Assembly (NCBI GenBank): GCA_040902225.1
Contig: JBBDXT010000007.1
Location: 449,112 to 513,111, forward strand
Direction of reading: 5' to 3'
DNA: 64,000 nt
DNA from: Chloroflexota bacterium
Lineage (GTDB): Bacteria; Chloroflexota; Limnocylindria; QHBO01
Part shown: positions 3,743-52,334 of the stretch, piece by piece
Layout of the letters: each line of letters starts with the position of its first letter
Numbering within the stretch: position 1 is the stretch's first letter
Translations under genes and position numbers: made by a program
The notes under the pieces: model-generated
Told to the model about the DNA's origin: nothing
The model's input: only the letters and a program-made list of their open reading frames with translations
Databases searched by the model: none

Positions 3743-4758
3743 CCTCCCTTGTGCTGTGGCTGCATCACGCGGGTCGGCACCGCGACCGCGCGCGTGAGGC
3801 GTTCCAGGAGCTCGCGATGCATCCCCTCCGCGTCCAGCTCCGTGACGATGCTCACCGGCAGGCGAGTCTCGTCCCTGGATCGGTACAGGCTGCCGGCCAG
3901 GTGCGGATCGTTGCCCGTGTCGCAGGCCAATCGCTCATCGACGGCCTCGGTTACCAGGTCGGGGCGCAGCAGCGACCCGATCAGCGTGACCGGGTCATGC
4001 AGGTAGCAGCCGTCGATCCCCTCCGCGTGCCGGTGGAAGGAGATGTAGAAGCGCACCGCGTCACGCACGATCGCCGACAGGGGTGTGCCCGGCAGGGCGT
4101 CGAGATCCTCGAGCGTGAAGATCAGGTCCTGGGTGGCGTCGAGCGGAAAGATGCGCGAGATGGCCCCGGCGGCCAGGACTGCTTCGGCCGCCTCGGGATC
4201 GACGCACGCATTCCATTCGCCGGTCTCCGTGGTGTTGCCCCGTTCCTCCAGCGTGCCGCCCATCCAGATCAGCTCGCGGAGCCCGCCGGCAAGATCCACC
4301 CCGTTCAGGACGGCGGATGCCAGGTTGGTGAGCGGACCCAGCGCCACCACGCTCAGCTCGCCCGGGTGTCGCTCGATGTGCGCGGCGAGGTAGCGCGGCG
4401 CGGGCACCGCCGTGTAGTCGGTCGATCCAAGCTCGGGATCCTCCCCGGTCAGCTCGACGTAGCCGGTGCCGGTGGGGCCGTGCGTGTCGGGCGCGGTGCG
4501 CAGGCGGCGATGGAGGGGGCGTGCCGCGCCGATGCTGACCGGCACGTCGCCGCGCCCCACCAGGCGCAGGATCTTGCCGGTGTTGCGCGCGACGTGGTGG
4601 ATCTCGACATTGCCCGCCACGCAGGTGACGCCGCGAAGGTTCAGCTCGGGAGCGGTCGCCGCGATGAGCAAAGCGATCATGTCGTCGATCCCGGTGTCGA
4701 CGTCCAGGAGGACCGGGCGGGGCTCGGCGTCGGTCGGGCTCGCCTGCATTGCCGTCAT
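3739..4758 (-). CDS. inosine-uridine-preferring nucleoside hydrolase family protein
   Basis: N-terminal DVDTGIDDMIALL aspartate cluster (the IUNH DXDXXXDD motif) and 339 aa length. Overlaps the S-like gene start. Confidence 0.8.
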   Translation of the reverse strand: MTAMQASPTDAEPRPVLLDVDTGIDDMIALLIAATAPELNLRGVTCVAGNVEIHHVARNTGKILRLVGRGDVPVSIGAARPLHRRLRTAPDTHGPTGTGYVELTGEDPELGSTDYTAVPAPRYLAAHIERHPGELSVVALGPLTNLASAVLNGVDLAGGLRELIWMGGTLEERGNTTETGEWNACVDPEAAEAVLAAGAISRIFPLDATQDLIFTLEDLDALPGTPLSAIVRDAVRFYISFHRHAEGIDGCYLHDPVTLIGSLLRPDLVTEAVDERLACDTGNDPHLAGSLYRSRDETRLPVSIVTELDAEGMHRELLERLTRAVAVPTRVMQPQHKGG

Positions 4759-4767
4759 CGTACCCCG

Positions 4768-5670
4768 CTAGAGTGGCCAGCCACCGGCGCGACCCACCTT
4801 GCTGCCCAGTTCGCCTCCCAGCTGCGAGGCGATGAATCGGGCCGCCGCCAGGACGCCGTCCAGGTTCACCCCCGAACGAACTCCCTGGCGGTCGAGCAGG
4901 AAGACGAGGTCCTCCGTCGCCAGGTTGCCCGCCGAGCCCGGCGCGTATGGCGAGCCGCCGGTTCCGCCCGCCGAGGAATCGAAGCAGCGGACGCCCACAT
5001 CCATCGCCGCCATCACGTTGGCGAGGGCCGTCCCGCGCGTATCGTGGAGGTGCAGGGCGAGCACATCCGGGCCGATCCCCGCGAGGGTCAGCGCCGCAAG
5101 CACCCGTGCTACATCGACTGGGGCGGCCACGCCAAGCGTGTCGGAGATCGACAGCTCGTCGACCCCAAGCCGCAGCAGCCGTTCAGCGACGCTCACCACC
5201 GCCCGTTCGTCCACCTCGCCCTCGTACGGGCAGCCAAACGCGGTGCTGACGTAGGCGCGGATCCACCAGCCGCGACGCCGCGCCTCGGCGGCAATCGGCT
5301 CGAAGGCCGCCAGCGACTCGTCAATGCTCATCCCGATGTTGTGCTGCACGTAGGCGTCGGTGGCCGCGGTGATGAGGCAGATCGCATCCACCTCCGCCGC
5401 GGTGGCGCGCTCCAGCCCGCGTGCATTCGGGACCAGGACCGGGTAGCGAACGCCGGAGCGTCGCTCGAGCCTTCCCAGCAACTCATCGGCATCGGCCATC
5501 TGCGGGATCGCTTTCGGGGAGACGAGCGAGGTTGCCTCGATCTCGTGCAGTCCGGCATCGGCGAGCATGCCGATGAACTGGAGCTTCGCATCGGTCGACA
5601 CGACGGTCGCCTCTGCCTGCAGCCCGTCGCGCGGACCAACCTCGTAGATGCGCACCTCGGGCCGGGTCAT
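4768..5670 (-). CDS. hydroxymethylglutaryl-CoA lyase
   Basis: HMGL-like TIM-barrel motifs: VGPRDGLQ near the N-terminus and HLHDTRG. 300 aa. Confidence 0.85.
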   Translation of the reverse strand: MTRPEVRIYEVGPRDGLQAEATVVSTDAKLQFIGMLADAGLHEIEATSLVSPKAIPQMADADELLGRLERRSGVRYPVLVPNARGLERATAAEVDAICLITAATDAYVQHNIGMSIDESLAAFEPIAAEARRRGWWIRAYVSTAFGCPYEGEVDERAVVSVAERLLRLGVDELSISDTLGVAAPVDVARVLAALTLAGIGPDVLALHLHDTRGTALANVMAAMDVGVRCFDSSAGGTGGSPYAPGSAGNLATEDLVFLLDRQGVRSGVNLDGVLAAARFIASQLGGELGSKVGRAGGWPL

Positions 5671-9331: not shown

Positions 9332-10399
9332 TCAGCCCGCCGAGCCCTCGTCACGCGCCTGGCGAGGCTGGCGAAATCGGTTTGGGGCAGTTGACTTCGG
9401 GCGGTTGAAGGGCGGGTCCCCGAGCGGCAGCAGATCCCAGGCGGCGATGTTCTTGCGGTCGCTGCACAGCCCCCACGTCCCATCCTTCAGCGTCGGATGC
9501 CCGATGAATGGGCGAAGGGCTTCTGGCTCGAGATGACACATCTGGATCAGCCGCAGCAGCTCGAGGTTCGGGGCGTCCGCCAGCGGGGCCAGATCGGTGA
9601 TGCCCTTCATGGTGTCAAGGGCCACGAAGCGGAGGTTGCGGGATCCGGCGAAGGAGGGCAGCGAGGTGATGCCCCTGAGGGTCTGGAGGAAGAAGTGCTC
9701 AAGCGACTCGACCTCCGCCAGCGCCGACACGTCTGCCAAGCCGCGGATCCGCCAAAGCTCCACGTACGTCAGCTGACCGATCCGCGGGAGTAGCGCGACG
9801 TCGTGCGTTCCACCCAGCTTGATATCGAGCGAGGTCAGGTTGCGCAACGGCACCAGCGCCGAGAGATCGGGCAGTGTGATCGACCGCAGCGTGAGGTCCT
9901 CCAGCGCCTGCAGCTCGCCAATCGCCTCAATCTCCTTCTGCTGCCACTCCAGGTACAGCGTTCGGAGTCGACGGAACTTCGCCAGGTTGCGGAGGGAGAA
10001 GCGCTTCGAGCGGGTCCAGCCAATCAGCAGGTCCTCGAGCTCATCCGAGAGCAGGCCGATTCCGTCCATGCTCGGCAGCTCGTAGATGGCGTCGACCGAG
10101 AAACGGCGCAGACGGGGGAAGAAGCGGAGGAAGTCGAGGTCGGTGATCGACTCGTCGTAGCCGCCATACACCCGGAGCCTGACATCCGGGTGATCCGCCA
10201 TGAAGTCGGCCAGCCGCTGGAATTCGTCATCGGTCAGCCGGCTGCTGATCTGGACCGTCGTGTGCTCCGGCACGAGCGGCGCCAGGTCCTCGTCGATCAG
10301 CGGCGAGCAGACCTCGCGGAGGGTCGGTCCGGGGAACCTCCTGTTGCCCACGGTGCTACATCCTGAACACGCCGAAGCGCGTCTCGGCGATCTCGGCAT
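9332..10399 (-). CDS. leucine-rich repeat (LRR) domain protein
   Basis: Repeated LxxLxLxxN/L-type units ([29 protein letters not shown]..., [29 protein letters not shown]). The called start overlaps MCC-beta by 44 bp, so a GTG at 10351 just after the MCC-beta stop is the more likely start. Confidence 0.5.
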
Positions 10400-11954
10400 T
10401 CAGCGCCGCGCTGATCCCCATCGCCAGGACGCGGCGCGTATCCATCGGGTCGATCACGCCGTCGTCCCACAGTCGCGCGGTCGAGTAGTAGGGCGACCCC
10501 TGGCGCTCGTATTCGGCCAGGATCGGTGCCTCGAAGGCTTCCCGTTGCTCGTCCGTCTCGATCTCGCCACTCACAGTGGACAGGACACGGGCCGCCTGGG
10601 CCCCGCCCATGACGCTGATGCGGGCGTTGGGCCACATCCAGAGCTGGCGCGGTGAATACGCGCGTCCCGCCATCCCGTAATTCCCCGCCCCAAAGCTGCC
10701 GCCGATGATCACGGTGAACTTCGGCACCGCGGTGGTCGCCACCGCCGTCACCAGCTTGGCGCCGTCCTTGGCGATCCCGCCGGCCTCGTACTCCCGCCCG
10801 ACCATGAAGCCGGTGATGTTCTGCAGGAAGACGAGCGGGATGCGCCGCTGGCTGGCCAGCTCGACGAAGTGCGCGCCCTTGAGCGAGGAGCTGCTGAACA
10901 GGATCCCGTTGCTGGCGAGAATCCCGACGGGGTAGCCCTCGACGTGCGCGAACCCGCAGACCAGCGTCTCGCCATATCGCTCCTTGAACTCGTGGAACTC
11001 GCTGCCATCGACGAGTCGGGCGATCACCTCGCGGACGTCATAGCTGAACCTCGGGTCAGCCGGGATGACGCCGTACAGCTCCTCCGGCTTGACCGATGGC
11101 GGCGCCGGCTCGCTGCGCTCCCATGGCGCCGCGGGCTTGCGCCAGGCCAGCGAACGGACGATTTCGCGGCCGATCGCCAGGGCGTGCTCATCGTTGAGTG
11201 CGAAGTGGTCGGCCACCCCGCTCGTCACGGTGTGGACCTCGGCCCCGCCCAGCTCCTCCGCCGTCACCTCCTCCCCGGTTGCCGCCTTCACCAGCGGCGG
11301 ACCACCCAGGAAGATGGTTCCGGTCCCCTTCACGATCACCGTCTCGTCGGACATGGCCGGGACGTAGGCCCCTCCGGCCGTGGAAGAGCCCATCACCAGC
11401 GCAATCTGCGGGATGCCGCGCGCGGAGAGCTGCGCCTGGTTGTAGAAGATGCGGCCGAAGTGCTCGCGATCGGGAAATACCTCGTCCTGGAGCGGCAGGT
11501 AGGCCCCGCCCGAGTCGACCAGATACAGGCACGGCAGGCGGTTCTCGAGGGCGACCTCCTGGGCGCGAAGGTGCTTCTTGACGGTCATCGGGAAGTAGGT
11601 GCCGCCCTTGACCGTCGCGTCGTTGGCGACGAGGACGCACTCGACCCCCTCGACCAGGCCGACGCCGGTCACCATCCCCGCCCCCGGCGCCTCGCCGTCG
11701 TACAGGCCATCGGCCGCCAGTGCGGAGAATTCGAGGAAGGCGCTACCAGGATCAATGAGCCGCTCGACCCGCTCGCGGACCGGCATCTTGCCGCGCTCAC
11801 GGTGGCGGGCGATCGAGCGCTCGTCGCCGCCGGCGCCTCGTTCGCTCACGGCTCGGGTTCGGGCCCGCAGCTCATCGACCTGCGCGCGCAAGGCGGCCGC
11901 ATTGGCGGCGAAGGCTTCAGAGGCGGGGTCGAGGGCGGAGCGCAGGACGGCCAT
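10356..11954 (-). CDS. methylcrotonyl-CoA carboxylase beta subunit (carboxyltransferase)
   Basis: 532-aa carboxyltransferase with N- and C-terminal CoA-carboxylase domains ([41 protein letters not shown]). Confidence 0.85.
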
Positions 11955-14582: not shown

Positions 14583-14795
14583 CTAGGCCCGTATCTTGTG
14601 GCGCACTCCGACCACGACCAAGATGCCTCCCGCGACAATCAGACCCACCCCGACGACATTGAAGGCAATCGTCCCGATCGTCTCGCAGGCCCGACTGTCG
14701 GACTCGCTGAAGCAGGACTGAGCCTGCGGTGCAACGATCAGGGCAGCGATGCCAACGGCGATCAGAAATGCGCCGAGCCAGAGCTTGGCTGTCAT
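14583..14795 (-). CDS. small two-TM membrane protein (paralog A)
   Basis: The called ORF is 14583..14882, but the likely start is MTAKLW at 14795. TM1, then loop APQAQSCFSESDSRACETIGT, then TM2. Paralogous to the adjacent 14806..15069 ORF. Confidence 0.4.
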   Translation of the reverse strand: MTAKLWLGAFLIAVGIAALIVAPQAQSCFSESDSRACETIGTIAFNVVGVGLIVAGGILVVVGVRHKIRA

Positions 14796-14805
14796 CTCGG
14801 CGAGT

Positions 14806-15069
14806 CTAAGGACTCGTGTTGCGTCGGGATCGTCCGCTGCGCCCGGATTGCCGAGGAGGGCGCTCCTCGGTCGGCGAGCCACGCAGCGCCAGCACGATGG
14901 CCGCAGTGGCGACCAGGGCCAGACCCACGACCTTCAGAATGATCGTGCCGCCTGTCTCGCACGCGGTGCTGTCGAAGTCCATGACGCAGGACTGCGCCTG
15001 CGGAGCAACGAGCAGCACTGCAAGGCCGAGCACGATCAGAAGAATTCCCAGCCAGTGCCACCTGGTCAT
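14806..15069 (-). CDS. small two-TM membrane protein (paralog B)
   Basis: MTRWHWLGILLIVLGLAVLLVAPQAQSCVMDFDSTACETGGTIILKVVGLALV... Shares the APQAQSC...DS.ACET.GTI loop motif with paralog A. The start codon overlaps the GGDEF gene stop (ATGA). Confidence 0.4.
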   Translation of the reverse strand: MTRWHWLGILLIVLGLAVLLVAPQAQSCVMDFDSTACETGGTIILKVVGLALVATAAIVLALRGSPTEERPPRQSGRSGRSRRNTSP

Positions 15070-16514
15070 GCGTTCCCCTCGGCGAATTCGGCGGTAAGCG
15101 TCTCAACGTCTCGCTCGGGTTCGTCAATGCGGGCCAGCCCGTGGAGCCGATCGAATGCGATCCGGTTGCCGCCGGCCGCCCGCGCGGACGCGAGCGCCTC
15201 CTCGGCGGCCGCCAGGAGCTCATCGCCACTGAGCGTCATCCCAGGGCGCATCAGCGCGATCCCGATGGAGAGGCTCACGGTGACCTCGCCCCGCTCGGTC
15301 ATGACCCGGCGCTCGAGGACCCGATCCAGGACCGCCCGCGCGAACATCACGGCGCCGCCTTCGCCGGTGTGCGGCAGGATCGCCAGGAAGGCGTCGCCGC
15401 CGACGCGACCCACCGCATCGGCCTCGCGCATCCGCACCCGCAGGCGAAGTGCGATCCTGCGCAGCATTTCGTCGCCGACCTCCAGCCCGTGCTCGTGGTT
15501 GAGGTCGGTGAACCGATCGATGTCGAGCAGCACCACCGCCACCGGGTGCGCGTAGCGGCGTGCCTCGGCCGCCTCGGTCCGCAATCGGTCGAGCGTCGGC
15601 CAGCGGCTGGGAAGCCCCGTCAGCGGATCGGTGCTGGACGCTCGGTCGATCTCGACCCGCTGCAGCTCGATCAGGTGGCGCGCGGCGACCAGGTCGTCCA
15701 GCGTGGCTCGCAGCTCGCGCGTCAGGCGAGCGAGCTCGTCGTACTCGGGCGGGCTTTCAGAAGCGGCGGGTCGTTCGTGAACGGCCGGAGCGGGCTCAGC
15801 GACCGCGGTCCGGTGCGCGCGGCTGGCCAGCAGCCGCCAGCCGAGCACCAGCGCGGCCAGGGCCATGCCCAAGGGACCAATCAGGCTCTCCGTCCCGGAG
15901 GAGCGGCCAACTGCGATGGCCCCCACGGACGACGCCGCGATGCCGAGCGCGGTGGCGCGGGCTGGGGCGTCGAGGCTGGTCGCAGCCGCGGCCGCCACCA
16001 GCAGTGCTCCGCCGGCGAGGAAGATGGGCGCAATCCGCGCCGGGACCGACCATCCCGCGGCCACCAGCATGCCCGCCAGGCTGGCTTCTACCAGCGCAAT
16101 GGCAATGAGGAGGCCGACGATCCGTCCCCGTCGGGTGGCGATGGCCCGCTGCCGCAGGACCGACCCAGCGACGAAGACAGCCGCCGCGGAGGTCAGGCCG
16201 ATGCCGAGGCCAAGGACTCCGGCAGCATCGAGGGCGACCACGGCAAAGGCGGTCGCGATCATCCCCAGGCCGGCGAGGTCGGCGAGATCGCGGATCCGGC
16301 CGCCTTCCAGCGCCGCATCGACCGCGATCAGCAGGGCGAGGCCGGCGATGACGGCGACGGTTGCGGCGACCGCCGGCGCGACCCACGGGAGCGTCGATCC
16401 CTGCAGGGACGGAAACGCCCGAACCAGGCCGATGGCAGCCAGCGGCAGGAGCACCGCCACGGGGCGGCCTCCGGTGCGCGCGATGATCACGCCGGCTGAT
16501 CGGTTCAAAGGCAT
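15066..16514 (-). CDS. membrane-anchored GGDEF-domain protein (diguanylate cyclase-like, GGDAF variant)
   Basis: Multi-TM N-terminal region then a GGDEF fold (VLLDIDRFTDLNHEHG...RVGGDAFLAILP). The active-site pentapeptide reads GGDAF rather than GG(D/E)EF. Likely start is MPLNRSAG at 16514. The called ORF extends to 16712. Confidence 0.65.
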   Translation of the reverse strand: MPLNRSAGVIIARTGGRPVAVLLPLAAIGLVRAFPSLQGSTLPWVAPAVAATVAVIAGLALLIAVDAALEGGRIRDLADLAGLGMIATAFAVVALDAAGVLGLGIGLTSAAAVFVAGSVLRQRAIATRRGRIVGLLIAIALVEASLAGMLVAAGWSVPARIAPIFLAGGALLVAAAAATSLDAPARATALGIAASSVGAIAVGRSSGTESLIGPLGMALAALVLGWRLLASRAHRTAVAEPAPAVHERPAASESPPEYDELARLTRELRATLDDLVAARHLIELQRVEIDRASSTDPLTGLPSRWPTLDRLRTEAAEARRYAHPVAVVLLDIDRFTDLNHEHGLEVGDEMLRRIALRLRVRMREADAVGRVGGDAFLAILPHTGEGGAVMFARAVLDRVLERRVMTERGEVTVSLSIGIALMRPGMTLSGDELLAAAEEALASARAAGGNRIAFDRLHGLARIDEPERDVETLTAEFAEGNA

Positions 16515-18458: not shown

Positions 18459-18830
18459 GCTCCGCCCGAGACCTCGCGGGTTACCAGCTCCATTGGTACA
18501 AACGCCCATCTGCCCTCCCTTTCGGGCCTGATTGGGCTGCAAACGAGCGTCGCTACCAGTGACATTGGTGCCGGCGCACGTACGCGAGTCGTGACGCGCC
18601 GTTCTACCAGCATGGTTGGTAGCCACGGCCACCTCTCGGCTAGGCGTCGCCACGTTATTACCTCTGGGACTACATTGGCGCGCTTGGCGCCGAAAACTGC
18701 CATGGATCGGTCGCTCACGCGCCGTCGGAGTCCCCTACGTGCTGAAATCGCGCGCGGGAAGCCTGTCGTGCGCTGTTGTGGCACCGTGAGGAATAACCCC
18801 GGCAACGCCGGCGGCGCTAGCATCTCCCCG

Positions 18831-19400
18831 ATGCGCATCTACACCCGCAAGGGCGACACCGGCACGACCGGCCTTCTCTTCGGTGGCGCCCGCGTCAGCA
18901 AGGCGGACCTGCGCACGGATGCCTACGGCACGGCCGATGAAGCGGTGTCCGCGCTCGGGCTGGCGCGGGCTGCCATCGGCGCCGCCACGGACCGGACCGA
19001 GGCCCAGCTGGCCACCCTCATCATCCGGCTTCAGCGCGAGCTGTTCGTCGTCGGGGCAGAGCTGGCCACGCACATCGACCGCCGGCAGAAGCTGACCGAC
19101 GGCGTGACGCGGGTGACGACCGAGATGGTCACCGCACTGGAGGGTGAGATCGACGCGCTCGAGGCCGGACACGAGATGCCGGTTGAGTTCGTGCTGCCGG
19201 GGGAATCGGTCGCCGGTGCCTCGCTCGACCTGGCACGGACGAGCGTCCGCCGCGCGGAACGCCGGGCCGTGGCGCTGACGAACGAGGGTGGTCTGCCGGA
19301 CTCGCAGGTGGTGCCCTACCTCAACCGCCTTGCCGACCTGCTCTTCGTCATGGCTCGCGCGGCCGATGGGGGCTTCCGTCCGCTGCGAACGCGCGAGTAG
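18831..19400 (+). CDS. cob(I)yrinic acid a,c-diamide / cob(I)alamin adenosyltransferase (PduO-type)
   Basis: MRIYTRKGDTGTTGLLFGG N-terminus and about 190 aa length are typical of PduO/MMAB-type ATP:corrinoid adenosyltransferases. The ATG at 18831 lies inside the longer called ORF. Confidence 0.75.
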   Translation: MRIYTRKGDTGTTGLLFGGARVSKADLRTDAYGTADEAVSALGLARAAIGAATDRTEAQLATLIIRLQRELFVVGAELATHIDRRQKLTDGVTRVTTEMVTALEGEIDALEAGHEMPVEFVLPGESVAGASLDLARTSVRRAERRAVALTNEGGLPDSQVVPYLNRLADLLFVMARAADGGFRPLRTRE

Positions 19401-44141: not shown

Positions 44142-45197
44142 GTGACCACCGCCGCAGCGCCGCCGCGCACCATGCGTGCGCTCGCCAAGACCCGTCCTGA
44201 GCCCGGCCTCGAGCTCGTGCAGCGGCCCGTCCCGGTGCCCGGTCCCGATGACGTGCTGCTCAAGATGGAGGCGGCCTCGATCTGCGGCACGGACCTGCAT
44301 CTGTTCCGCTGGGATCCGTGGGCGAGCGAGATCGTCAAGCCGCCGACCATCCTGGGTCACGAGCTCGCCGGCCGCGTGGTGGCCACGGGCGCGGGCGTGA
44401 CCCGCGTGGTGGACGGCGACCTGGTCGGTGTGGAGAGCCACATCGTGGACGGCACCTGCGCGCAGTGTCGCCGCGGCGATCGGCACCTGTGCCGCAACCT
44501 GAAGGTGATCGGGGCGCACGTGGACGGCGGCTTCGCCGAGTACGTGGTCATCCCCGAGGCGAACGCCATCGAGTCCAACGGCCTCGACCCCGCGGTGGTG
44601 GCTCTGCAGGAGCCGATGGGCAACGCCGTGCATGCCGCCTTCGTCGAGCCGATCGAGGGGCGAACGGTGCTCGTCACCGGCTGCGGCCCCATCGGCCTCT
44701 GCGCGGTGGGAATTGCCCGAGCTGCCGGGGCTGCCATGGTGATCGCCACCGACACGGAGGAGTATCGGCTCGAGCTGGCCCGCGGCATGGGCGCCGACCT
44801 GGCACTCGACGCGCGCGACCCGGGGACGGTTGATCGGATCCGGGCAGCCACCGATGGCGATGGGGTCGAGGTGGTGCTCGAGATGAGCGGGGCGCAGGCG
44901 GCGCTCGACCAGGCCCTGGCGGCGATCACCCGCGGCGGGCGGATCAGCCTGCTCGGCATCTTCGGGGAGCCGGTCCGCGTCGACCTGTCCGACTTCGTGA
45001 TCCAGAAGGGCCTGCGCATCTACGGCATCTACGGCCGCCGCATCTACGACACGTGGGAGCGAACCCAGGCGCTGCTGCGCTCCGGCGCGCTTGACGTCAC
45101 GCCGATCATCACCCATCGATTCGACCTCGCCGACTGGGAGCGCGGCTTCGACCTGATCGCCTCCCGACACGCCGGAAAGGTAGTGCTCCTGCCATGA
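44142..45197 (+). CDS. tdh: L-threonine 3-dehydrogenase (zinc-dependent)
   Basis: GHELAG, structural-zinc Cys cluster ([12 protein letters not shown]), and GCGPIGL Rossmann motif. Followed by kbl. Confidence 0.85.
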
Positions 45198-46411
45198 CCG
45201 ATGCCGTCACCGCCCGCTCTCGCAACCCCCTCGCCTTCCTCGATGCGGAGATCGAGGACCTCAAGGCCAAGGGCCTGTACCGGCGCCTGCGGGTGGTGCA
45301 GAGCGAGCAGCGCAGCCGCTGCATGATCGACGGGCGCGAGGTGATCACGCTGTCGAGCAACAACTACCTCGGCCTGAACACGCACCCGCGCCTGCGGGAC
45401 GCGGCGATCGAGGCGGTCCGGCGCTTTGGGGCCGGGTCGGGAGCAGTGCGCACCATCGCCGGCACCATGAGCCTGCACGAGGAGCTGGAGCGCCGCCTGG
45501 CCGAGTTCAAGCAGGTGCCCGCGGTCCTCACCTTCCAGTCCGGCTTTACGGCCAACACCGGTGTGATCCCGATCGTGGCTCCGGAGGGCGCGGTGATCGT
45601 CTCCGACGCACTGAACCACGCCAGCATCATCGATGGCATCCGGCTGACCAAGGCGGAGCGCAAGGTCTTTCCGCACGCCGACATGGACGGGCTGCGCGCG
45701 GTGCTGGCCGAGGTGCGAGCGGCGCCCGGCGGAGCTGACCGAACCGTCCTCGTCATCACCGACGGCGTCTTCAGCATGGATGGCGACATCGCCCGACTGC
45801 CCGAGATCGTCGGGGCCGCCGAGGAGGCCGATGCGATCGTCTACGTCGACGACGCGCACGCGTCAGGCGTGCTCGGTCGCAACGGGCGGGGAAGCATCGA
45901 TCACTTCGGCCTGCATGGCCGGGTGCAGATCCAGGTCGGGACCCTCTCCAAGGCGATCGGGGTGCTGGGCGGATACGTTGCTGGCAGTCAAGCGCTGCGC
46001 GACATCCTGATCCACCGTGCGCGCCCGTTCCTCTTCTCGACGTCCCATCCACCAGCCGTGGCGGCGGCGTGCCTGGCGGCGATCGACGTCCTGGAATCGG
46101 AGCCGGAGCTGATCGAGCGGCTTTGGCAGAACACCCGCCTCTTCAAGGCGGGCCTGGCGCGCCTCGGCTTCGACATCGGCGCATCCGAGACACCGATCAC
46201 GCCCGTCATCGCCGGCAGCGGGGCGATGGCCATGAAGCTGTCGGATCGGCTCTTCGAGGAGGGCGTCTTCGCGCAGGGGATCGGCTTCCCGACGGTGCCC
46301 GACGATCGGTCGCGGGTCCGGACCATCGTCACGGCCGAACACACCCACGACGAGCTCGAGACCTGCCTCGCCGCGTTCGAGAAGGTCGGTCACGAGCTGG
46401 CGCTCATCTAG
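45194..46411 (+). CDS. kbl: 2-amino-3-ketobutyrate CoA ligase (glycine C-acetyltransferase)
   Basis: Class II aminotransferase / 8-amino-7-oxononanoate synthase family with a PLP-Lys region ([16 protein letters not shown]). Overlaps the tdh stop. Confidence 0.85.
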
Positions 46412-46427
46412 CCGTCGAAGACAGAAA

Positions 46428-46457
46428 GACGGGGTAGAGGCGAACCTCTACCCCGTC
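46428..46457. terminator. perfect 13-bp stem hairpin (GACGGGGTAGAGG-CGAA-CCTCTACCCCGTC), copy 1
   Basis: It lies between convergent kbl (+) and cassette gene 1 (-), so it is a likely bidirectional terminator. The same element recurs at 47387, 48572 and 49089. Confidence 0.5.
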
Positions 46458-46481
46458 CGGTCGGCTTGCGCCGTTCAAGGG

Positions 46482-47162
46482 CTAGCTGATGCTGCGTCCC
46501 GCCTTGACGTTCGCGTAGGCGAGCGCCCCGAGGGATGCCAGCAGGATCAGGCTGAAGGCGATGGTCGGCAACGGGCTCGAGCCATCGAGTGACTGCGCGC
46601 TGTCGGGCATGCTCCCTCCGGGAGTGCCGGCGCCGCCCTCGACCAACTGGTCGCTTGACTCTTCGCCTGGATCGTCGCCGGACTCGTCGCCGGACTCGTC
46701 GCCCGACTCGGGGACCGACTCAGACTCGGCCTCCAATTCCTCTTCTGCGCCGTCGCAGCCGTTGTCGAAGATCGCCTGTCCGGCGGCATTCCAGTTCAGG
46801 CTGGGATAGCCGGTCAGGGTGACGCCGTCCGAATAGAACGGCGGGACGATGTCGCCCCAGTACACGCCAGCGGCCTTTGCGCCGGGAGACCACACCGGGC
46901 CCGTGTGCTCGAAGAGGTGGTCGCCCTTGCCGTGGTCGTTGCCGTTGTCGCCGTCGACCGAGGCCTCATCGACCGTGACCTTAACGTACGGATTCGTCTC
47001 CGCATGGGTGCGATGGCAGATGGTGACCTTGTGCAGCGGGTCCGGCTTCGTGGCCTGGACCGGAGTCACGAGGTATGACATCGACAGCGCCATTGCGGCT
47101 GTCGCGGCGAGCACAACGCTCAGCCGTGACATCCGTGCCATGGTGAGAGTGCGAGTGTTCAC
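46482..47162 (-). CDS. secreted cassette protein 1: signal peptide, passenger domain, acidic GDES repeats, conserved C-terminal TM anchor
   Basis: GTG start 5 nt after GGAGAT. Signal MNTRTLTMARMSRLSVVLAATAAMALS...VQA, acidic repeat GDESGDESGDD, and C-terminus SSPLPTIAFSLILLASLGALAYANVKAGRSIS. Confidence 0.6.
   Translation of the reverse strand: MNTRTLTMARMSRLSVVLAATAAMALSMSYLVTPVQATKPDPLHKVTICHRTHAETNPYVKVTVDEASVDGDNGNDHGKGDHLFEHTGPVWSPGAKAAGVYWGDIVPPFYSDGVTLTGYPSLNWNAAGQAIFDNGCDGAEEELEAESESVPESGDESGDESGDDPGEESSDQLVEGGAGTPGGSMPDSAQSLDGSSPLPTIAFSLILLASLGALAYANVKAGRSIS
46669..46720. repeat. 12-bp tandem repeat (gactcgtcgccg x about 3.5) encoding the GDES linker
   Basis: Direct reading of 46669..46720. 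Confidence 0.6.
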
Positions 47163-47220
47163 GAGGTATCTCCTAAGACTTCCAGCACCCCTGGCACGCT
47201 ACGGAACACCCGCGCGGCCC

Positions 47221-47277
47221 CCCTGGGGGTCGATATGTCCCGACCCTAACCGGAAGTACTGGGCCTGCCTAGTACCT
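47221..47277 (-). promoter_or_regulatory. conserved cassette 5' leader motif, copy L1
   Basis: ccctgggggtcgatatgtcccgaccctaaccggaagtactgggcctgcctagtacc. Homologous to 48401..48460 and 48921..48976, and partially to 50105..50125. Confidence 0.4.
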
Positions 47278-47386
47278 CCGGATGGGCCTCCGGATGGGTC
47301 CAGTTGAGTGCGGTCCGCAGGTGGGGACTCTGGTCGTTGCGCCCCCGCAACGGATTTCGCGGCGCACGAGCCCGAACACAACAGAA

Positions 47387-47416
47387 GACGGGGTAGAGGC
47401 GAACCTCTACCCCGTC
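47387..47416. terminator. 13-bp stem hairpin, copy 2
   Basis: gacggggtagagg cgaa cctctaccccgtc. Confidence 0.45.
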
Positions 47417-47490
47417 CCTGCCAGGGGGGCTGGCTCAATCGGGGCTGTGCGCGCGGCGCATGCCCGGCTCCGTAGTCTATCCGAATGCTA

Positions 47491-47518
47491 GACAGCCCCC
47501 AGAGGACCGGGGGCTGTC
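47491..47518 (-). terminator. 10-bp stem GC hairpin (GACAGCCCCC-N8-GGGGGCTGTC) 35 nt after cassette gene 2 stop
   Basis: Direct reading. A homologous hairpin lies at 48677..48704 and an identical copy at 49193..49220. Confidence 0.45.
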
Positions 47519-47552
47519 TCGTTCAGGTCGACCGGCTGTCGCCGTTTTCTGC

Positions 47553-48347
47553 CTAGATGCGGCTGCGCACCATCTTGACGTTCGCGTAAGCGAGTGCGCC
47601 GAGGGATGCCAGCAGGATCAGGCTGAAGGCGATGGTCGGCAGCGGGCTGGAGCCGGCTCCGAAGAGCGAGCTATCAGCCGTGCTCTCCTCGGCCGAGAAG
47701 GTGAGGGCAGCGACCGACTGCTCGCCCGACTCAGCCTCGGACTCGGGGACCGACTGCTCCTCGGACTCGGGGACGGACTGCTCCTCGGACTCGGGGACGG
47801 ACTCTTCCTCGGACTCGGGGACCGACTGCTCCTCGGACTCCGACTCCTCAAGTTCGATGAGACAGAACGCGATGTGGCTGATGCTGTCCTCCGAAAGCGC
47901 GAGCAGTCCATCGTCGTGGGCAATGCCGGGACCAGCGAATCCAGCCTGCGCGCCGGTGTAGTCATACACGTTCGAGGCGTTGGTGCCCTTGACGATCACA
48001 TAGGCTGCCAGCCCGCCATCGACGATGAACCAGAAGCTATTGCCGTCGACGGTGATCTCGACGTTGGCCGTTGAACCATCGGGGAGCTCGACGTCGTCAT
48101 CCTGGGTGCCGTCCGGGGTCGAGTCGAACTTCAGCTCGGTGGTACCCTCGGGACACGGAACGTTGCCCCCCGAATTCGACCCCCACTCTTCATTATTAGG
48201 CCCCACCGCGATGGGGAGGACCTCCGGGCCGTCGGCCGGGTCATGCTCGGCCAGCACCGGGCTCATCACCCAGAGCATCGACAGCGCGAGCGCCGACAGT
48301 GCGGCGAGAAGGATGGCGGGCCGCGATGCGGCGGTGCGAGTACTCAC
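47553..48347 (-). CDS. secreted cassette protein 2 (copy A): signal peptide, passenger domain, SEEQSVPE repeats, conserved C-terminal TM anchor
   Basis: The called ORF runs to 48395. The homologous start is GTG at 48347 (AAGGAGA-N9-GTG, reading M-S-T-R-T like gene 1). Signal ...LSMLWVMSPVLA, acidic repeats, and C-terminus SSPLPTIAFSLILLASLGALAYANVKMVRSRI. Confidence 0.6.
   Translation of the reverse strand: MSTRTAASRPAILLAALSALALSMLWVMSPVLAEHDPADGPEVLPIAVGPNNEEWGSNSGGNVPCPEGTTELKFDSTPDGTQDDDVELPDGSTANVEITVDGNSFWFIVDGGLAAYVIVKGTNASNVYDYTGAQAGFAGPGIAHDDGLLALSEDSISHIAFCLIELEESESEEQSVPESEEESVPESEEQSVPESEEQSVPESEAESGEQSVAALTFSAEESTADSSLFGAGSSPLPTIAFSLILLASLGALAYANVKMVRSRI
47737..47850. repeat. 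24-bp tandem repeat x about 4.5 (tcggactcggggacSgactgctcc) encoding the SEEQSVPE linker
   Basis: Direct reading. An identical array lies at 49439..49552. Confidence 0.6.
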
Positions 48348-48400
48348 GATACCGGTCTCCTTTACAGCTCCCCTGGTGCTCGGGCGATAGTCCACCCGAG

Positions 48401-48460
48401 ACCCCCCTGGGGTTAGATCTCTGGCACCCTAGGACGGAAGTACTGTTCCTGCCTAGTACC
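48401..48460 (-). promoter_or_regulatory. conserved cassette 5' leader motif, copy L2
   Basis: cccctggggttagatctctggcaccctaggacggaagtactgttcctgcctagtacc. It contains AGATCT, CCTAGG and AGTACT palindromes. Confidence 0.4.
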
Positions 48461-48571
48461 CCCGGAGGCCATGGTGGTGAGGTCCTGTGGGGTTCGGTGG
48501 CGAGCGGATGCCTTAGGTTGGTGCACCGCTGCACCGGAATCTTGCCCACGCCGGCCGACGACACAACAGAA

Positions 48572-48601
48572 GACGGGGTAGAGGCGAACCGCTACCCCGT
48601 C
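48572..48601. terminator. 13-bp stem hairpin, copy 3 (one mismatch)
   Basis: gacggggtagagg cgaa ccgctaccccgtc. Confidence 0.4.
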
Positions 48602-48749
48602 TCTGCCAGGGGGCTGGATCGATCGGAGCCTGGTGCGTGGCCGCTCAGGCTCCCCTGGAGAGTTGTCCGGACACGAGGCAGCCCCCGCCACACCGGGGGC
48701 TGCCTCCGCTAGCTCAGCTGGTGGTTGTTGACCTGTCTTCTGGCACCCA

Positions 48750-48860
48750 CTACATCGGATGCAAGAAGTAACCGAGAGCGAAGGCGATGATCAGCATCGC
48801 GCCAGCGGTGATGAGGATGCGGCGGGAGAAGATCCCGCCCTTGGCTCTACGAGTAATCAC
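48750..48860 (-). CDS. 36-aa mini-cassette ORF (single-TM peptide)
   Basis: GGGAGG-N8-GTG, reading MITRRAKGGIFSRRILITAGAMLIIAFALGYFLHPM. It has the same M-x-T-R start and the same leader (48921..48976) and hairpin context (48677..48704, 48572..48601) as the large cassette genes. Confidence 0.35.
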   Translation of the reverse strand: MITRRAKGGIFSRRILITAGAMLIIAFALGYFLHPM

Positions 48861-48920
48861 GATAACGGCCTCCCTGGACGTTCCTGCTCCCCCGGTGTTC
48901 AACGCGGTGGTCCACGCAGA

Positions 48921-48976
48921 CCCCTGGGGTTAGATCTCCGGCACCCTAGAACGGAAGTACTGGTCGTGACTAGGAC
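48921..48976 (-). promoter_or_regulatory. conserved cassette 5' leader motif, copy L3
   Basis: cccctggggttagatctccggcaccctagaacggaagtactggtcgtgactaggacc. Confidence 0.4.
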
Positions 48977-49077
48977 CTCCGGGTACCCACGTGGTGGGGT
49001 CTGCTTGGGTCCGGTTGAGACCGGGTGCTTTAGGTTGGTGCGTCGTTGCACCGCAATCTTGGCTGCGCCGGGCCGCG

Positions 49078-50116
49078 ACACAACAGAAGACGGGGTAGAG
49101 GCGAACCTCTACCCCGTCCCTGCCAGGGGGGCTGGCTCAATCGGGGCTGTGCGCGCGGCGCATGCCCGGCTCCGTAGTCTATCCGAATGCTAGACAGCCC
49201 CCAGAGGACCGGGGGCTGTCTCGTTCAGGTCGACCGGCTGTCGCCGTTTTCTGCCTAGATGCGGCTGCGCACCATCTTGACGTTCGCGTAAGCGAGTGCG
49301 CCGAGGGATGCCAGCAGGATCAGGCTGAAGGCGATGGTCGGCAGCGGGCTGGAGCCGGCTCCGAAGAGCGAGCTATCAGCCGTGCTCTCCTCGGCCGAGA
49401 AGGTGAGGGCAGCGACCGACTGCTCGCCCGACTCAGCCTCGGACTCGGGGACCGACTGCTCCTCGGACTCGGGGACGGACTGCTCCTCGGACTCGGGGAC
49501 GGACTCTTCCTCGGACTCGGGGACCGACTGCTCCTCGGACTCCGACTCCTCAAGTTCGATGAGACAGAACGCGATGTGGCTGATGCTGTCCTCCGAAAGC
49601 GCGAGCAGTCCATCGTCGTGGGCAATGCCGGGACCAGCGAATCCAGCCTGCGCGCCGGTGTAGTCATACACGTTCGAGGCGTTGGTGCCCTTGACGATCA
49701 CATAGGCTGCCAGCCCGCCATCGACGATGAACCAGAAGCTATTGCCGTCGACGGTGATCTCGACGTTGGCCGTTGAACCATCGGGGAGCTCGACGTCGTC
49801 ATCCTGGGTGCCGTCCGGGGTCGAGTCGAACTTCAGCTCGGTGGTACCCTCGGGACACGGAACGTTGCCCCCCGAATTCGACCCCCACTCTTCATTATTA
49901 GGCCCCACCGCGATGGGGAGGACCTCCGGGCCGTCGGCCGGGTCATGCTCGGCCAGCACCGGGCTCATCACCCAGAGCATCGACAGCGCGAGCGCCGACA
50001 GTGCGGCGAGAAGGATGGCGGGCCGCGATGCGGCGGTGCGAGTACTCACGATACCGGTCTCCTTTACAGCTCCCCTGGTGCTCGGGCGATAGTCCACCCG
50101 AGACCCCCCTGGGGTT
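49078..50116. repeat. 1039-bp direct repeat, copy B
   Basis: See copy A. Identity ends where 48415 (agatct) and 50117 (catcaagg) diverge. Confidence 0.7.
49255..50049 (-). CDS. secreted cassette protein 2 (copy B, identical to copy A)
   Basis: Its translation is identical to 47553..48347. The 5' leader diverges beyond 50116. Confidence 0.6.
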   Translation of the reverse strand: MSTRTAASRPAILLAALSALALSMLWVMSPVLAEHDPADGPEVLPIAVGPNNEEWGSNSGGNVPCPEGTTELKFDSTPDGTQDDDVELPDGSTANVEITVDGNSFWFIVDGGLAAYVIVKGTNASNVYDYTGAQAGFAGPGIAHDDGLLALSEDSISHIAFCLIELEESESEEQSVPESEEESVPESEEQSVPESEEQSVPESEAESGEQSVAALTFSAEESTADSSLFGAGSSPLPTIAFSLILLASLGALAYANVKMVRSRI

Positions 50117-50245
50117 CATCAAGGAGCCGGAGAATACACGGGAAGTTGTGCGTTGCCTAGTACTTTTGTCGAGTAATTTGCAGAGCGGTGGCGGCTGGTT
50201 GGGTGCGGAGCACAAACGAACGGTGCACGCAGGCACCAATCGTGC

Positions 50246-50890
50246 TCAGCCGGTGCGCCCGCGCGCCTCCAACAGCACCACCTGACTCTCCTCGGGGAGC
50301 GAGGATGGGACGACCACCGCCTTCGGCTGACGGATCGGCTCGCTGACCGCCAGCTCGTGAAGGAAGCGCTCGGGTCCGAGCAGATCCGCTGATGCCCCGT
50401 CCGTGGCGAAGTGCATCGGGATCACGATCTTCGGGCTGATCTGGGCGACGACCTCAGCGGCCTCGGCCGGGCCGATGGTGAAGTTGCCGCCGGCCGGCAC
50501 CAGCAGCACGTCGATCGGTCCGAGCTCTGCGAGCTCCTCCTCGGTGAGCAGATGCCCCAGGTCCCCCAGGTGGCAGACGTGCACGCCGTCCATCTCCACC
50601 GCGAAGATGACGTTCTCGCCGCGCTCGGCTCCGCGCACGCCGTCGTGGAACGAACGAACTGCCGTGATCAGCAGGTTGCGATGCTCGTACTCGCCTGGCC
50701 GAGTCAGCGTCAGCCCGGCGGTGATCGAACGCGTGTAGCTGTGGTCGGCGTGGCCGTGGGAGATCGTCAGCAGGTCCACGTCGTGCTTGCCGGCGACGAA
50801 CCCGGTTGAGGGAGGACAGGGGTCGGTGATGACCGTCGCCTCGCGCCCCTTCAGGCGGAAGCAGGCGCGCCCGTACCAGGTGATCTCCAT
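50246..50890 (-). CDS. MBL-fold metallo-hydrolase
   Basis: HGHADH motif (TISHGHADHS) and downstream His/Asp ligands (HLGDLGH, IPMHF). The likely start is MEITWYGRACF at 50890. Confidence 0.7.
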   Translation of the reverse strand: MEITWYGRACFRLKGREATVITDPCPPSTGFVAGKHDVDLLTISHGHADHSYTRSITAGLTLTRPGEYEHRNLLITAVRSFHDGVRGAERGENVIFAVEMDGVHVCHLGDLGHLLTEEELAELGPIDVLLVPAGGNFTIGPAEAAEVVAQISPKIVIPMHFATDGASADLLGPERFLHELAVSEPIRQPKAVVVPSSLPEESQVVLLEARGRTG

Positions 50891-51086
50891 GGGATGGCCG
50901 ATGCTACTGGAAATGCACGAGCGCCGGTGCCCGCCCAATGACACCGGCGCTCGAAGGAGGGAGGGTGGAGGCGGAAACCCGTTGGTTTCCAACTCGCAGG
51001 GACAACCCTAGGAGCCATCGGTGAATCCCAAAGGGGGGCTTGGCTTAAGAAACCTGAACCTAACGCCGCGTCAGACGGATGCGACA

Positions 51087-52334
51087 ATGCGGCCGATGTC
51101 CTCCCTGGCCAGGCGCCTCGCCGCTCTCAGCGTCCTGCTCCTGAGCCTGGCCATCATCGCGGTGCTGGGGCTGCGCGCGACGGCGATCGGACCCTTCAGC
51201 AGCCCTACGCCCGTAGCGGCGACAGCGACGCCCCAACCTTCCGGGCCGGCCTCTTCGCAGGATCCGCTGACCGTCTTCGGCCACATCGAGGAGCAGGTTC
51301 GCCAGATGCGGGGCCTGCCGGCGGCCGACATCGGGCCCCCGGAGATCATGACCCGGGCCGAGCTGGCGCAGGTCCTGCCCGGCCTGCTCGAGCCGCCGCT
51401 CGACAACGCGACCCTGCGTGCCCTTGGCCTCCTCGACGCCGACCAGGACATCGTGGCGCTGACCGAGGAGCTGTATATCGCCCAGGTGCTCGGCTACTAC
51501 GACTTCGACGCGAAGCAGATGGTGGTGGTGACCGATGCCGGGCTGACGCCCGCGGCGCAGATCACGTATGCCCACGAGTACACCCATGCCCTGCAGGACG
51601 CTGCCTTCGACAGCGGCGCAGCGCAGGAGGCAGTCGCCGGGCAGCGGGATCGGGAGCTCGCCCTGCTTGGGCTCATGGAGGGCGACGCCACCACGGCGAT
51701 GGTGCTATGGGCGATCGGGCACCTCTCGGCCGAGGAGCTGGCGGGGATCACCCAGAGCCCCGTCCCTGACATGAGCGGGATCCCGGCCTGGATGGTCAGC
51801 CTGCTCGAATTCCCGTACCTCTCGGGGGCCGAGTTCGTCGGTCAGCTGTACGCCTCAGGCGGATGGGAGGCAGTGGACGCGGCATATCGCGACCTGCCCG
51901 CATCGACCGAGCAGATCCTGCACCACGATGCCTACGTCGACCACGAGGCTCCGACCGAGCTCGATCCGCTCGACCTGTGGAGCGCCGTCGGAGCGGATTG
52001 GGCGCACGCCTCCGATACGACCCTTGGCGAGGCGTGGATGGCGATCTGGCTGGAGGGGATCGGCGCCAGTCGAACGGCCGCCGACGCGGCGGCGGGATGG
52101 GGCGGCGACCGGTTGACCGTGGCCACCGACGCGGGTGGCAGCTGGGCCCTCGGTTGGCGGATCGCCTGGGATACAGCGAACGATGCCACCGAGTTCGAGA
52201 CCGCCTACGCGGGCGTGCAGTCTGCGCTTCCCTTTGCGACACGGCTCGTCCACGCCTCGGATCGCGAGACGATCGTCCTGCAGGCCTCCTCTGCGGAACT
52301 GCTCGAGACGATCGCAAGCCTGGCGGGCAGCTGA
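51087..52334 (+). CDS. secreted HEXXH-motif protein (putative zinc metallopeptidase)
   Basis: Signal/anchor MRPMSSLARRLAALSVLLLSLAIIAVLG and an HEYTH zincin motif (ITYAHEYTHALQD). Remaining sequence not recognisable. Confidence 0.45.
   Translation: MRPMSSLARRLAALSVLLLSLAIIAVLGLRATAIGPFSSPTPVAATATPQPSGPASSQDPLTVFGHIEEQVRQMRGLPAADIGPPEIMTRAELAQVLPGLLEPPLDNATLRALGLLDADQDIVALTEELYIAQVLGYYDFDAKQMVVVTDAGLTPAAQITYAHEYTHALQDAAFDSGAAQEAVAGQRDRELALLGLMEGDATTAMVLWAIGHLSAEELAGITQSPVPDMSGIPAWMVSLLEFPYLSGAEFVGQLYASGGWEAVDAAYRDLPASTEQILHHDAYVDHEAPTELDPLDLWSAVGADWAHASDTTLGEAWMAIWLEGIGASRTAADAAAGWGGDRLTVATDAGGSWALGWRIAWDTANDATEFETAYAGVQSALPFATRLVHASDRETIVLQASSAELLETIASLAGS

Follow-up and report, generated by a model that had tools for sequence, protein, structure and literature searches.

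The DNA considered here, referred to below as the window, is a stretch of 64,000 nucleotides (nt) from a Chloroflexota bacterium of the Limnocylindria (assembly GCA_040902225.1, contig JBBDXT010000007.1, positions 449,112 to 513,111 of the forward strand), and it contains a small array of paralogous genes in which a segment of 1,039 bp occurs twice. The array has four slots and lies between kbl, which encodes glycine C-acetyltransferase, and a gene for a hydrolase of the metallo-beta-lactamase (MBL) fold (Table 1). The real genes of the region are on the minus strand, as judged from the G+C content of third codon positions (GC3) and from the list of open reading frames (ORFs), and the slots are numbered such that a reading of this strand from the MBL side meets slot 4 first and slot 1 last. 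As read from its sequence, a slot is a self-contained minus-strand unit consisting of a leader, a 5′ untranslated region (5′UTR) with a CCCCAGGGG block, a signal peptide, a variable core, acidic repeats, an anchor, and a 3′UTR with a terminator-like hairpin that we call H. Slot 3 appears to be a decayed cassette: its type-2 leader and its ribosome-binding site (RBS) are intact, its ORF is short, its copy of the H hairpin (48572-48601) carries one mismatch and has a broken stem, and the conserved anchor is not present after the remnant ORF. For gene 2, which occupies slots 2 and 4, the true start is likely the GTG at 48347 (50049 in the second copy), giving a product of 264 amino acids (aa).

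Table 1. Features of the array and its flanks, in window coordinates (CDS, coding sequence; MAG, metagenome-assembled genome).
Feature	Position	Strand	Remarks
kbl (glycine C-acetyltransferase), left flank	45194..46411	+	NCBIfam TIGR01825/NF005394; anchor for 80 related loci
Gene 1, slot 1, behind leader L1, 226 aa	46482..47162	-	paralogue with another core and the same anchor; identical in contig L001
Leader L1, type 1, 5′ of gene 1	47163..47375	-	
Repeat copy a, slot 2	47376..48414	-	5′UTR, gene 2, 3′UTR and terminator tail, in this order; exact identity to copy b
Ultra-conserved 56-nt block around H	47378..47433	-	twin 49080-49135
H hairpin	47387..47416	-	intrinsic-terminator-like; 13-15 bp stem, UUCG loop, then UUCUGUUGUGU; further copies 46428-46457, 49089-49118
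First 3′UTR hairpin of gene 2	47491..47518	-	10-bp stem, no U tail; twin 49193-49220
Gene 2a CDS, slot 2, behind leader L2, 264 aa	47553..48347	-	100% match to NCBI MAG protein P0001; AAGGAGA RBS before GTG 48347
24-bp tandem repeat, 4.4 copies	47735..47840		encodes the acidic SVPESEEQ linker; Tandem Repeats Finder, repeat family D1; twin 49437-49542
5′UTR of gene 2a	48348..48414	-	from the invariant CCCCAGGGGGG block to the RBS; twin 50050-50116
Spacer	48415..49077	-	leader L2, slot 3 remnant with hairpins, leader L3; 70-83% to other intergenic units
Leader L2, type 2, 5′ of gene 2a	48415..48569	-	
Slot 3 remnant ORF, behind leader L3, 36 codons, signal peptide only	48750..48860	-	family-type signal peptide MITRRAKGGIFSRRIL...GYFLHPM*; ORF list; N-termini of P0062 and P0102 similar
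Leader L3, type 2, with 5′UTR, 5′ of remnant ORF	48861..49077	-	
Repeat copy b, slot 4, adjoining the MBL-fold gene	49078..50116	-	exact identity to copy a
Gene 2b CDS, slot 4, behind leader L4	49255..50049	-	identical 264-aa product; string identity and ORF list
Leader L4, divergent, slot 4	50117..50245	-	retains only TAGGCA, a TATTCT -10-like hexamer and the CCCCAGGGG block
MBL-fold hydrolase gene, right flank	50246..50890	-	Pfam PF13483; synteny

An earlier note on this DNA had claimed two identical segments of 1,039 bp at an offset of 1,702 with a spacer of 663 bp between them, and direct string comparison bears this out with 0 mismatches. The match ceases to be exact as soon as a single base is added at either end, and outside the repeat the identity at the same offset is 0.2-0.5 in 50-nt windows. 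A BLAST search of the segment against the whole window returns only the two full copies, a third being absent, and exact repeats of at least 25 nt within the 64 kb all fall inside the array and nowhere else, so that chance is ruled out as their origin. The window contains no N, and in the public deposit the identical protein is listed under two consecutive accessions on one contig of 629 kb. The remaining contents that had been ascribed to each copy are also in place, namely the whole of gene 2 (ORFs 47553-48395 and 49255-50097, as listed), the 24-bp tandem repeats with 4.4 units, and both hairpins.

Read on the minus strand, each copy holds a AACCCCAGGGGGG block at the start of the 5′UTR, the RBS, the 264-aa gene, both 3′ hairpins and the end of the terminator tail, and would thus correspond roughly to one transcript minus its putative promoter. 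Both tract ends lie in blocks common to all cassettes, the right one in CCCCTGGGGTT (11 nt) and the left one in the H block (56-58 nt); more specifically, identity ends on the right just upstream of the 5′UTR block and on the left within the 56-nt H block. The bases that flank the two copies differ, and no target-site duplication was found. Near the tract ends there are also two 9-nt G/C elements that are reverse complements of each other (plus strand), CCAGGGGGG in the 3′ block and CCCCCCTGG at the start of the 5′UTR, located at 47420-47433 and 48400-48414 and, for copy b, 1,702 further on. Each transcript unit therefore starts and finishes with complementary bases, although this end complementarity may be coincidental.

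The age of the scaffold that holds these copies can be judged from related genomes. Eighty related loci were gathered with kbl as the anchor, and the 46 sequences that retain both flanks, among them the window and the long-read genome L084, were compared. The species represented by L004 (kbl 94% identical at the amino acid level) carries an orthologue of gene 1 and two cassettes with other cores behind orthologous leaders, whereas L084 has four cassettes in the same synteny, of which two adjacent ones share 600 bp at 94.7% identity and the two others are gene-1-type paralogues (83%). Leaders L1 to L3 are homologous across about 220 nt and L4 shares only a few landmarks with them; the conserved leader is found at 47163-47384, 48348-48569 and 48861-49086 in the window, at 4606-4827 and 5700-5920 in L004, and at 9759-9975 and 11836-12056 in L084. 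Across species the leaders fall into two orthologous types, type 1 comprising L1 and its relatives and type 2 comprising L2, L3, L004_b and L084_a. Leaders L2 and L3 are 75% identical to each other, and each of them is 76-78% identical to the orthologous L004_b, while L4, itself orthologous to the MBL-proximal leader of L004 (88% across 50032-51000), is barely alignable with the rest. As L2 and L3 are no closer to each other than to L004_b, and L4 can hardly be aligned at all, the four slots must be older than the identical tract. On this evidence, the four-slot scaffold is old, whereas the gene 2 units became perfectly identical only recently.

We consider it probable (about 65%) that both copies are real and derive from a very recent non-reciprocal homologous recombination between slots, by gene conversion or by replacement of a cassette through a double crossover. 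In such an exchange the conserved 5′ and 3′ ends of the units would supply the homology and the variable core of one slot would be overwritten by that of another, the visible tract spanning from the shared block CCCCAGGGG to the shared 56-nt H block. Two properties expected of gene conversion are found here: the tract is much younger than its flanks (0 differences in 1,039 bp vs 75% identity between L2 and L3), and its ends lie in homologous sequence of donor and recipient. The identity, the anatomy, the mismatch in age between tract and flanks, a difference in slot 2 in another MAG (see below) and the variability of the locus are observations, and it is from them that we infer the recombination. 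Of the two origins that the earlier note had offered, a recent duplication or gene conversion, the latter is favoured by the old flanks, the ends in shared blocks, the state of slot 2 in L001 and the variable relatives. A simple tandem duplication was rejected, as it would have given adjacent copies and an identical unit of 1,702 bp, instead of which a unique, old and diverged spacer of 663 bp is present; unequal crossing-over between slots was rejected as well, as the intervening units would have been duplicated too, which is not seen.

A further way to obtain two copies would be a de novo dispersed duplication, in which a fresh gene 2 unit was inserted as a new slot, for instance by template switching during replication at short shared blocks. 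The tract does end at short repeats (11 nt and 56 nt) that could have served as microhomology, and the size of the array varies between 0 and 4 genes among species, which means that slots are gained somehow. However, complete leaders stand beside both copies, orthologues of both L1 and L2 are present in L004 and L084, slot 2 of L001 is already occupied by a gene, and the copies are separated by the 663-bp unique spacer rather than lying adjacent with a unit of 1,702 bp, all of which makes such an insertion quite unlikely.

Further evidence comes from two contigs that coincide with parts of the window. Contig L001, which belongs to another MAG (GCA_040876205.1), matches 44897-47433 at 100% identity, that is, the end of tdh, kbl, gene 1, L1 and the H block, and from 47434 on, immediately past the first 9-nt element, it is only about 78% identical, with a protein tail ...VKSVRS* instead of ...VKMVRSRI* before the contig ends. 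Because this divergence follows 2.5 kb of identity, the content of slot 2 differs, at least at its 3′ end, between the two assemblies, and the sequence suggests that the 3′ end of slot 2 has been replaced; in L004, slot 2 is held by another gene. The Logan contig L082 (SRR27977660, k=31) approaches from the other side and is 100% identical to 53516-50087, where it stops 30 nt (k-1) inside copy b, so that the first 30-mer of the repeat must have more than one upstream context in those reads. Such a break is what the structure of the window predicts, although another cassette sharing that 30-mer would produce it too.

The possibility that the earlier note had also raised, an assembly artefact, would consist of a real array in which the gene 2 segment was traversed twice, or in which bubbles between similar paralogues were popped, so that two cassettes which are only similar, or even different, were written as identical. 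The locus indeed assembles poorly: 36 of the 80 related contigs end within the interval between kbl and the MBL-fold gene (29 of these at most 2.2 kb from kbl), as fits a repeat-rich and variable region, and both L001 and L082 break here. As L001 shows a variant of slot 2 next to 2.5 kb of perfect identity with the window, mixed haplotypes could exist in the source sample; the traversal of an assembly graph can be misled by exact repeats such as the 56-nt H block and the conserved gene ends; and even the 24-bp repeats, which are prone to slippage, are identical between the copies. An assembler could also have homogenised two copies that were merely similar, in which case the perfect identity would be partly its effect. 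Nevertheless, the spacer is unique and has the repeat on both sides, so any genome that holds it needs repeat-like sequence on either side of it, and the junction 48414|48415 joins the 5′UTR of gene 2 to L2 through about 11 shared nt, too short to mislead k-mers of 21 or more. The public k=31 contig ends precisely k-1 into copy b, as expected of a true boundary with two contexts, the 629-kb contig is free of N and its deposit annotates both copies, and near-identical duplicates within the array also occur in the independent long-read genome L084. An artefact is therefore regarded as unlikely.

Several observations weigh against gene conversion or cassette replacement as set out above. The second copy rests on one assembly, and the right shared block is today just 11 nt long, which is short for an exchange of the RecA type. 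The former occupant of the overwritten slot would need to have had a similar 5′UTR and signal peptide, which is plausible given the conservation of the family. Contig L001 ends about 195 nt into its divergent stretch, and its slot-2 core would lie beyond the contig. The clues to the polarity of the transfer conflict: L001 points to a replaced 3′ end of slot 2, whereas the 5′UTR and signal peptide of the copies resemble those of the L004 gene in slot 2 (79%, without large indels) more than those of the one in slot 4 (73%, with indels). Finally, the 31-mer that marks the right end of the repeat had 0 matches in a scan of metagenomes of the Joint Genome Institute (JGI); with this junction absent there, and with no close relative of the gene 2 core, the event is seen in one genome.

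Comparison with the relatives, which the earlier note had proposed as a check, shows that the same interval gains, loses and duplicates such genes across species. Among the 46 sequences, the kbl-MBL interval is between 29 bp and 9.6 kb long and contains 0-4 genes with the anchor, all in a single orientation, and no such genes were found in the 10 kb upstream of kbl. Across Ca. Limnocylindria the interval is a hotspot of variation. Recent duplicates within the interval were seen in L084 (8684-9283 vs 10021-10596, 94.7%), L043 (13075-13700 vs 14610-15229, 94.3%) and L065 (18007-18599 vs 18613-19206, 98.7%), hence repeated copying at this site is not unique to the window. Some ORFs of the interval reach 4-5 kb and have the same C-terminal anchor (e.g. 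L018:12879-18140), and the gene-1 type is retained in the kbl-proximal slot across several species. In another long-read relative, several kb 5′ of kbl, units of about 1.19 kb are repeated in tandem at 99.9% identity (L044:5521-8830), and this repeat is unrelated to the array.

Gene conversion and concerted evolution among tandem paralogues for surface proteins are known from Helicobacter babA/babB, from streptococcal emm-like genes and from staphylococcal tandem lipoprotein clusters. The array shares with these an identical tract within diverged flanks, tract ends in conserved gene termini, the retention of both donor and recipient, and slot content that varies between closely related assemblies; it differs from them in that the family, with its anchor and leaders, is undescribed and confined to Ca. 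Limnocylindria, and in that the tract covers the whole transcript region including the UTRs. In silent-cassette systems of antigenic variation (Neisseria pilE/pilS, Borrelia vlsE, Anaplasma msp2), variable cores likewise lie between conserved ends and cassettes would be copied non-reciprocally, as we infer for the array, whose units, in contrast, each have their own leader, RBS, start codon and terminator. A system of this kind was rejected, as both copies and gene 1 are complete, there are no promoterless silent copies and no single expression site, and even the remnant keeps its leader. Integron arrays resemble the locus in their small co-oriented units in series, in the imperfect palindrome that closes each unit and in their variable content, whereas here the palindrome is a terminator-like GC stem with a U tail and not an attC with GTTRRRY core sites, each unit has its own conserved leader of about 220 nt and an RBS, and the flanks are housekeeping genes in conserved synteny. 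An integron was rejected, as neither intI nor attI was found, Pfam and NCBIfam scans within about 10 kb on either side returned only metabolic and tRNA-synthetase genes, and the syntenic 20 kb of L084 held no such recombinase. Transposons, insertion sequences and miniature inverted-repeat transposable elements were rejected given that target-site duplications and a nearby transposase are missing, and a diversity-generating retroelement was rejected given 0 differences between the copies and no reverse transcriptase domain in the neighbourhood, in the window or in L084. The 'actively recombining cassette array' of the earlier note can therefore be kept in a loose sense only, as tandem, self-contained, paralogous transcription units, and not in the sense of an integron or of a silent-cassette system.

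The noncoding parts of the units are themselves conserved. The 5′UTR block could be aligned in 10 leaders, with a consensus CCCC...GGGG stem, and conservation across the leaders points to a promoter layout with a -35 element TAGGCA, a spacer of 17-18 nt and a -10 element TAGGGT (TATTCT in L4), which in L2 would place the putative promoter at 48450-48455 and 48426-48431. As a scan of the array with the sigma-70 consensus found no promoter, this assignment follows from conservation only. The leaders also contain a small covarying hairpin GKTGC...GCAMC and a near-invariant CCGGAGGTACTAGGCAGG-N-CAGTACTTCCGGTTAGGGT, an inverted repeat around the -35-like TAGGCA. The conserved leader could combine a promoter with an operator, or it could act as a structured RNA. 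A search of 45500-51500 against Rfam gave chance-level matches only (E 0.7-3.8, far below the gathering scores), so neither the leader nor the H block belongs to a known RNA family.

At the other end, every unit closes with a hairpin GACGGGGTAGAGG-TTCG-CCTCTACCCCGTC followed by TTCTGTTGTGT, which combines a GC-rich stem-loop with a U-rich tract on the coding strand, as in Rho-independent terminators. Scoring for intrinsic terminators on the minus strand picked out 46458-46427, 47418-47385 and 49120-49087, where GC stems of 14-15 bp carry a TTCG loop and lead into a T-rich tail, and the 3′UTR of gene 2 folds far better than its shuffles (z = -5.3); a hairpin 3′ of the remnant (48677-48704) is related to the first hairpin of this 3′UTR. 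Around H, the 56-nt noncoding block with its hairpin ACAACAGAAGACGGGGTAGAGGCGAACCTCTACCCCGTCCCTGCCAGGGGGGCTGG is found with 0-1 mismatch in 13 loci, including species in which kbl has about 80% nucleotide identity, and a few variants have compensatory changes in the stem. Within the window there are a variant (48563-48617) and a partial form (46421-46458), and instances elsewhere include L029:13015, L048:13033 and L050:13078. The block is far better conserved than the synonymous sites of kbl, and far better than an ordinary terminator would require.

Such features may raise the question of programmed mobilisation, by site-specific recombination at the H block or at CCCCAGGGG through a recombinase encoded elsewhere, or by an RNA-mediated copy. 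Its appeal lies in a tract that approximates one transcription unit, from the vicinity of the start site to the terminator tail with the putative promoter excluded, in a 56-nt block that outdoes synonymous sites and recurs as a direct repeat after every cassette, and in the 9-nt reverse complements near both ends. However, no integrase, invertase, transposase or reverse transcriptase is encoded in the nearest 10 kb or in the stretch of L084 that is syntenic, the duplicated segment does not have H blocks on both sides, and in the 46 genomes with both flanks all anchor-bearing genes have one orientation, without a sign of inversion. The boundary lies 11-14 nt 3′ of the inferred -10 hexamers, several nt past a normal start site, so that a copy made from a transcript would carry leader-specific bases, and these are not shared. 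Together with the absence of target-site duplications and the ordinary intrinsic-terminator shape of the H block, this renders mobilisation very improbable.

A broader reading, which we put forward as tentative and rather doubtful, is that the kbl-MBL interval is a dedicated locus of surface variation, in which self-contained expression cassettes, each delimited by the invariant 5′UTR block and the ultra-conserved 56-nt 3′ block, are routinely copied, swapped and lost between slots and strains, and in which the 56-nt block has a sequence-specific role beyond termination; it would then be a recombination signal, a site of RNA-protein contact or a small RNA derived from the 3′UTR. If so, the 1,039-bp duplicate would show such a system caught at work.

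At the protein level, gene 2 has at least 288 relatives in metagenomes, the named ones being from Ca. Limnocylindria. In the family, a conserved signal peptide (MSTRTAASRPxILLAA...) is followed by a variable core in which two cysteines are conserved, by an acidic linker of SV(P/A)ES-type repeats and by a nearly invariant tail, GTGTPEES...SSPLPTIAFSLILLASLGGLAYANVKTVRSRI. In this tail the short conserved motif SSPLPT comes after the low-complexity acidic linker and leads into a hydrophobic helix and then the basic end KTVRSRI. Even the closest relative shares only 44-48% identity with the gene 2 core. Residues 46-164 of gene 2 are modelled with confidence by AlphaFold2 as a beta-sandwich, and a comparison of this model with the PDB found no significant neighbour (best match E = 0.06) and so gave no hint of a function. 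No family was returned when gene 1, gene 2, the remnant and the anchor tails by themselves were scanned against Pfam and NCBIfam. Exact look-ups found no record for gene 2 (280 and 264 aa), the 248-aa MBL ORF or the remnant ORF (50 and 36 aa), the only matches being kbl and gene 1 in L001 and a 214-aa MBL protein in L082. Gene-1-type cores share PDPLHKVTICHRTxSxTNPYVxITVDEASVDGDEGND..GDHLLEH, which has no Pfam match (46482-47162; L084:11031-12878).

From signal peptide and tail, the family proteins are inferred to be anchored at the surface. In its succession of motif, helix and basic end, the tail is like the LPXTG/sortase, PEP-CTERM/exosortase and PGF-CTERM/archaeosortase signals; an assignment to the known C-terminal sorting domains was rejected, as an NCBIfam scan of the 46-50-aa tails found no sorting-domain model at E values up to 10, a cognate enzyme not having been searched for genome-wide. 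The tail may be nothing more than a C-terminal membrane anchor. The idea that the sequence coding for the anchor has been homogenised across species was rejected too, as its third codon positions diverge about as much as those of kbl (0.69 vs 0.64 identity). Beside the MBL-fold gene, 51021-52334 on the plus strand matches a model of the Hvo_1808 family of surface proteins (E = 3.8e-45, 155 bits, below the 200-bit cutoff) and is listed as DUF8575 in precomputed Pfam hits, and this neighbourhood may be cell-surface related. Literature searches on surface proteins or sortase of Limnocylindria and Chloroflexota found nothing relevant; as far as these searches reach, neither the family with its anchor nor the leader and terminator blocks have been described.

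The event itself would be ordinary in kind, as is the mechanism proposed for it, and what is noteworthy at the locus is the fixed site, the rapid turnover and the 56-nt noncoding block. In practical terms, the locus systematically breaks short-read assemblies, and a perfect 1-kb repeat in a MAG needs confirmation at the level of reads. For the bacterium, the same protein is now encoded behind two different leaders, the type-2 L2 and the divergent L4, and the 1,702 bp that separate equivalent points of the 1-kb direct repeat should be easily lost by deletion. Ca. Limnocylindria, a group of Chloroflexota, are abundant in soil and freshwater and have not been cultured, and we know of nothing reported on their cell surface. 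At one fixed place in their chromosome they would have a hitherto undescribed family of anchored proteins whose cores vary, and the content of this site differs by species and apparently between two assemblies that are identical over the adjoining 2.5 kb. The perfect duplicate would catch a change of the array very soon after the event, and with a change this fresh the region would serve well as a marker of diversity among strains and of selection on the cell surface, such as by phage, predators or attachment.

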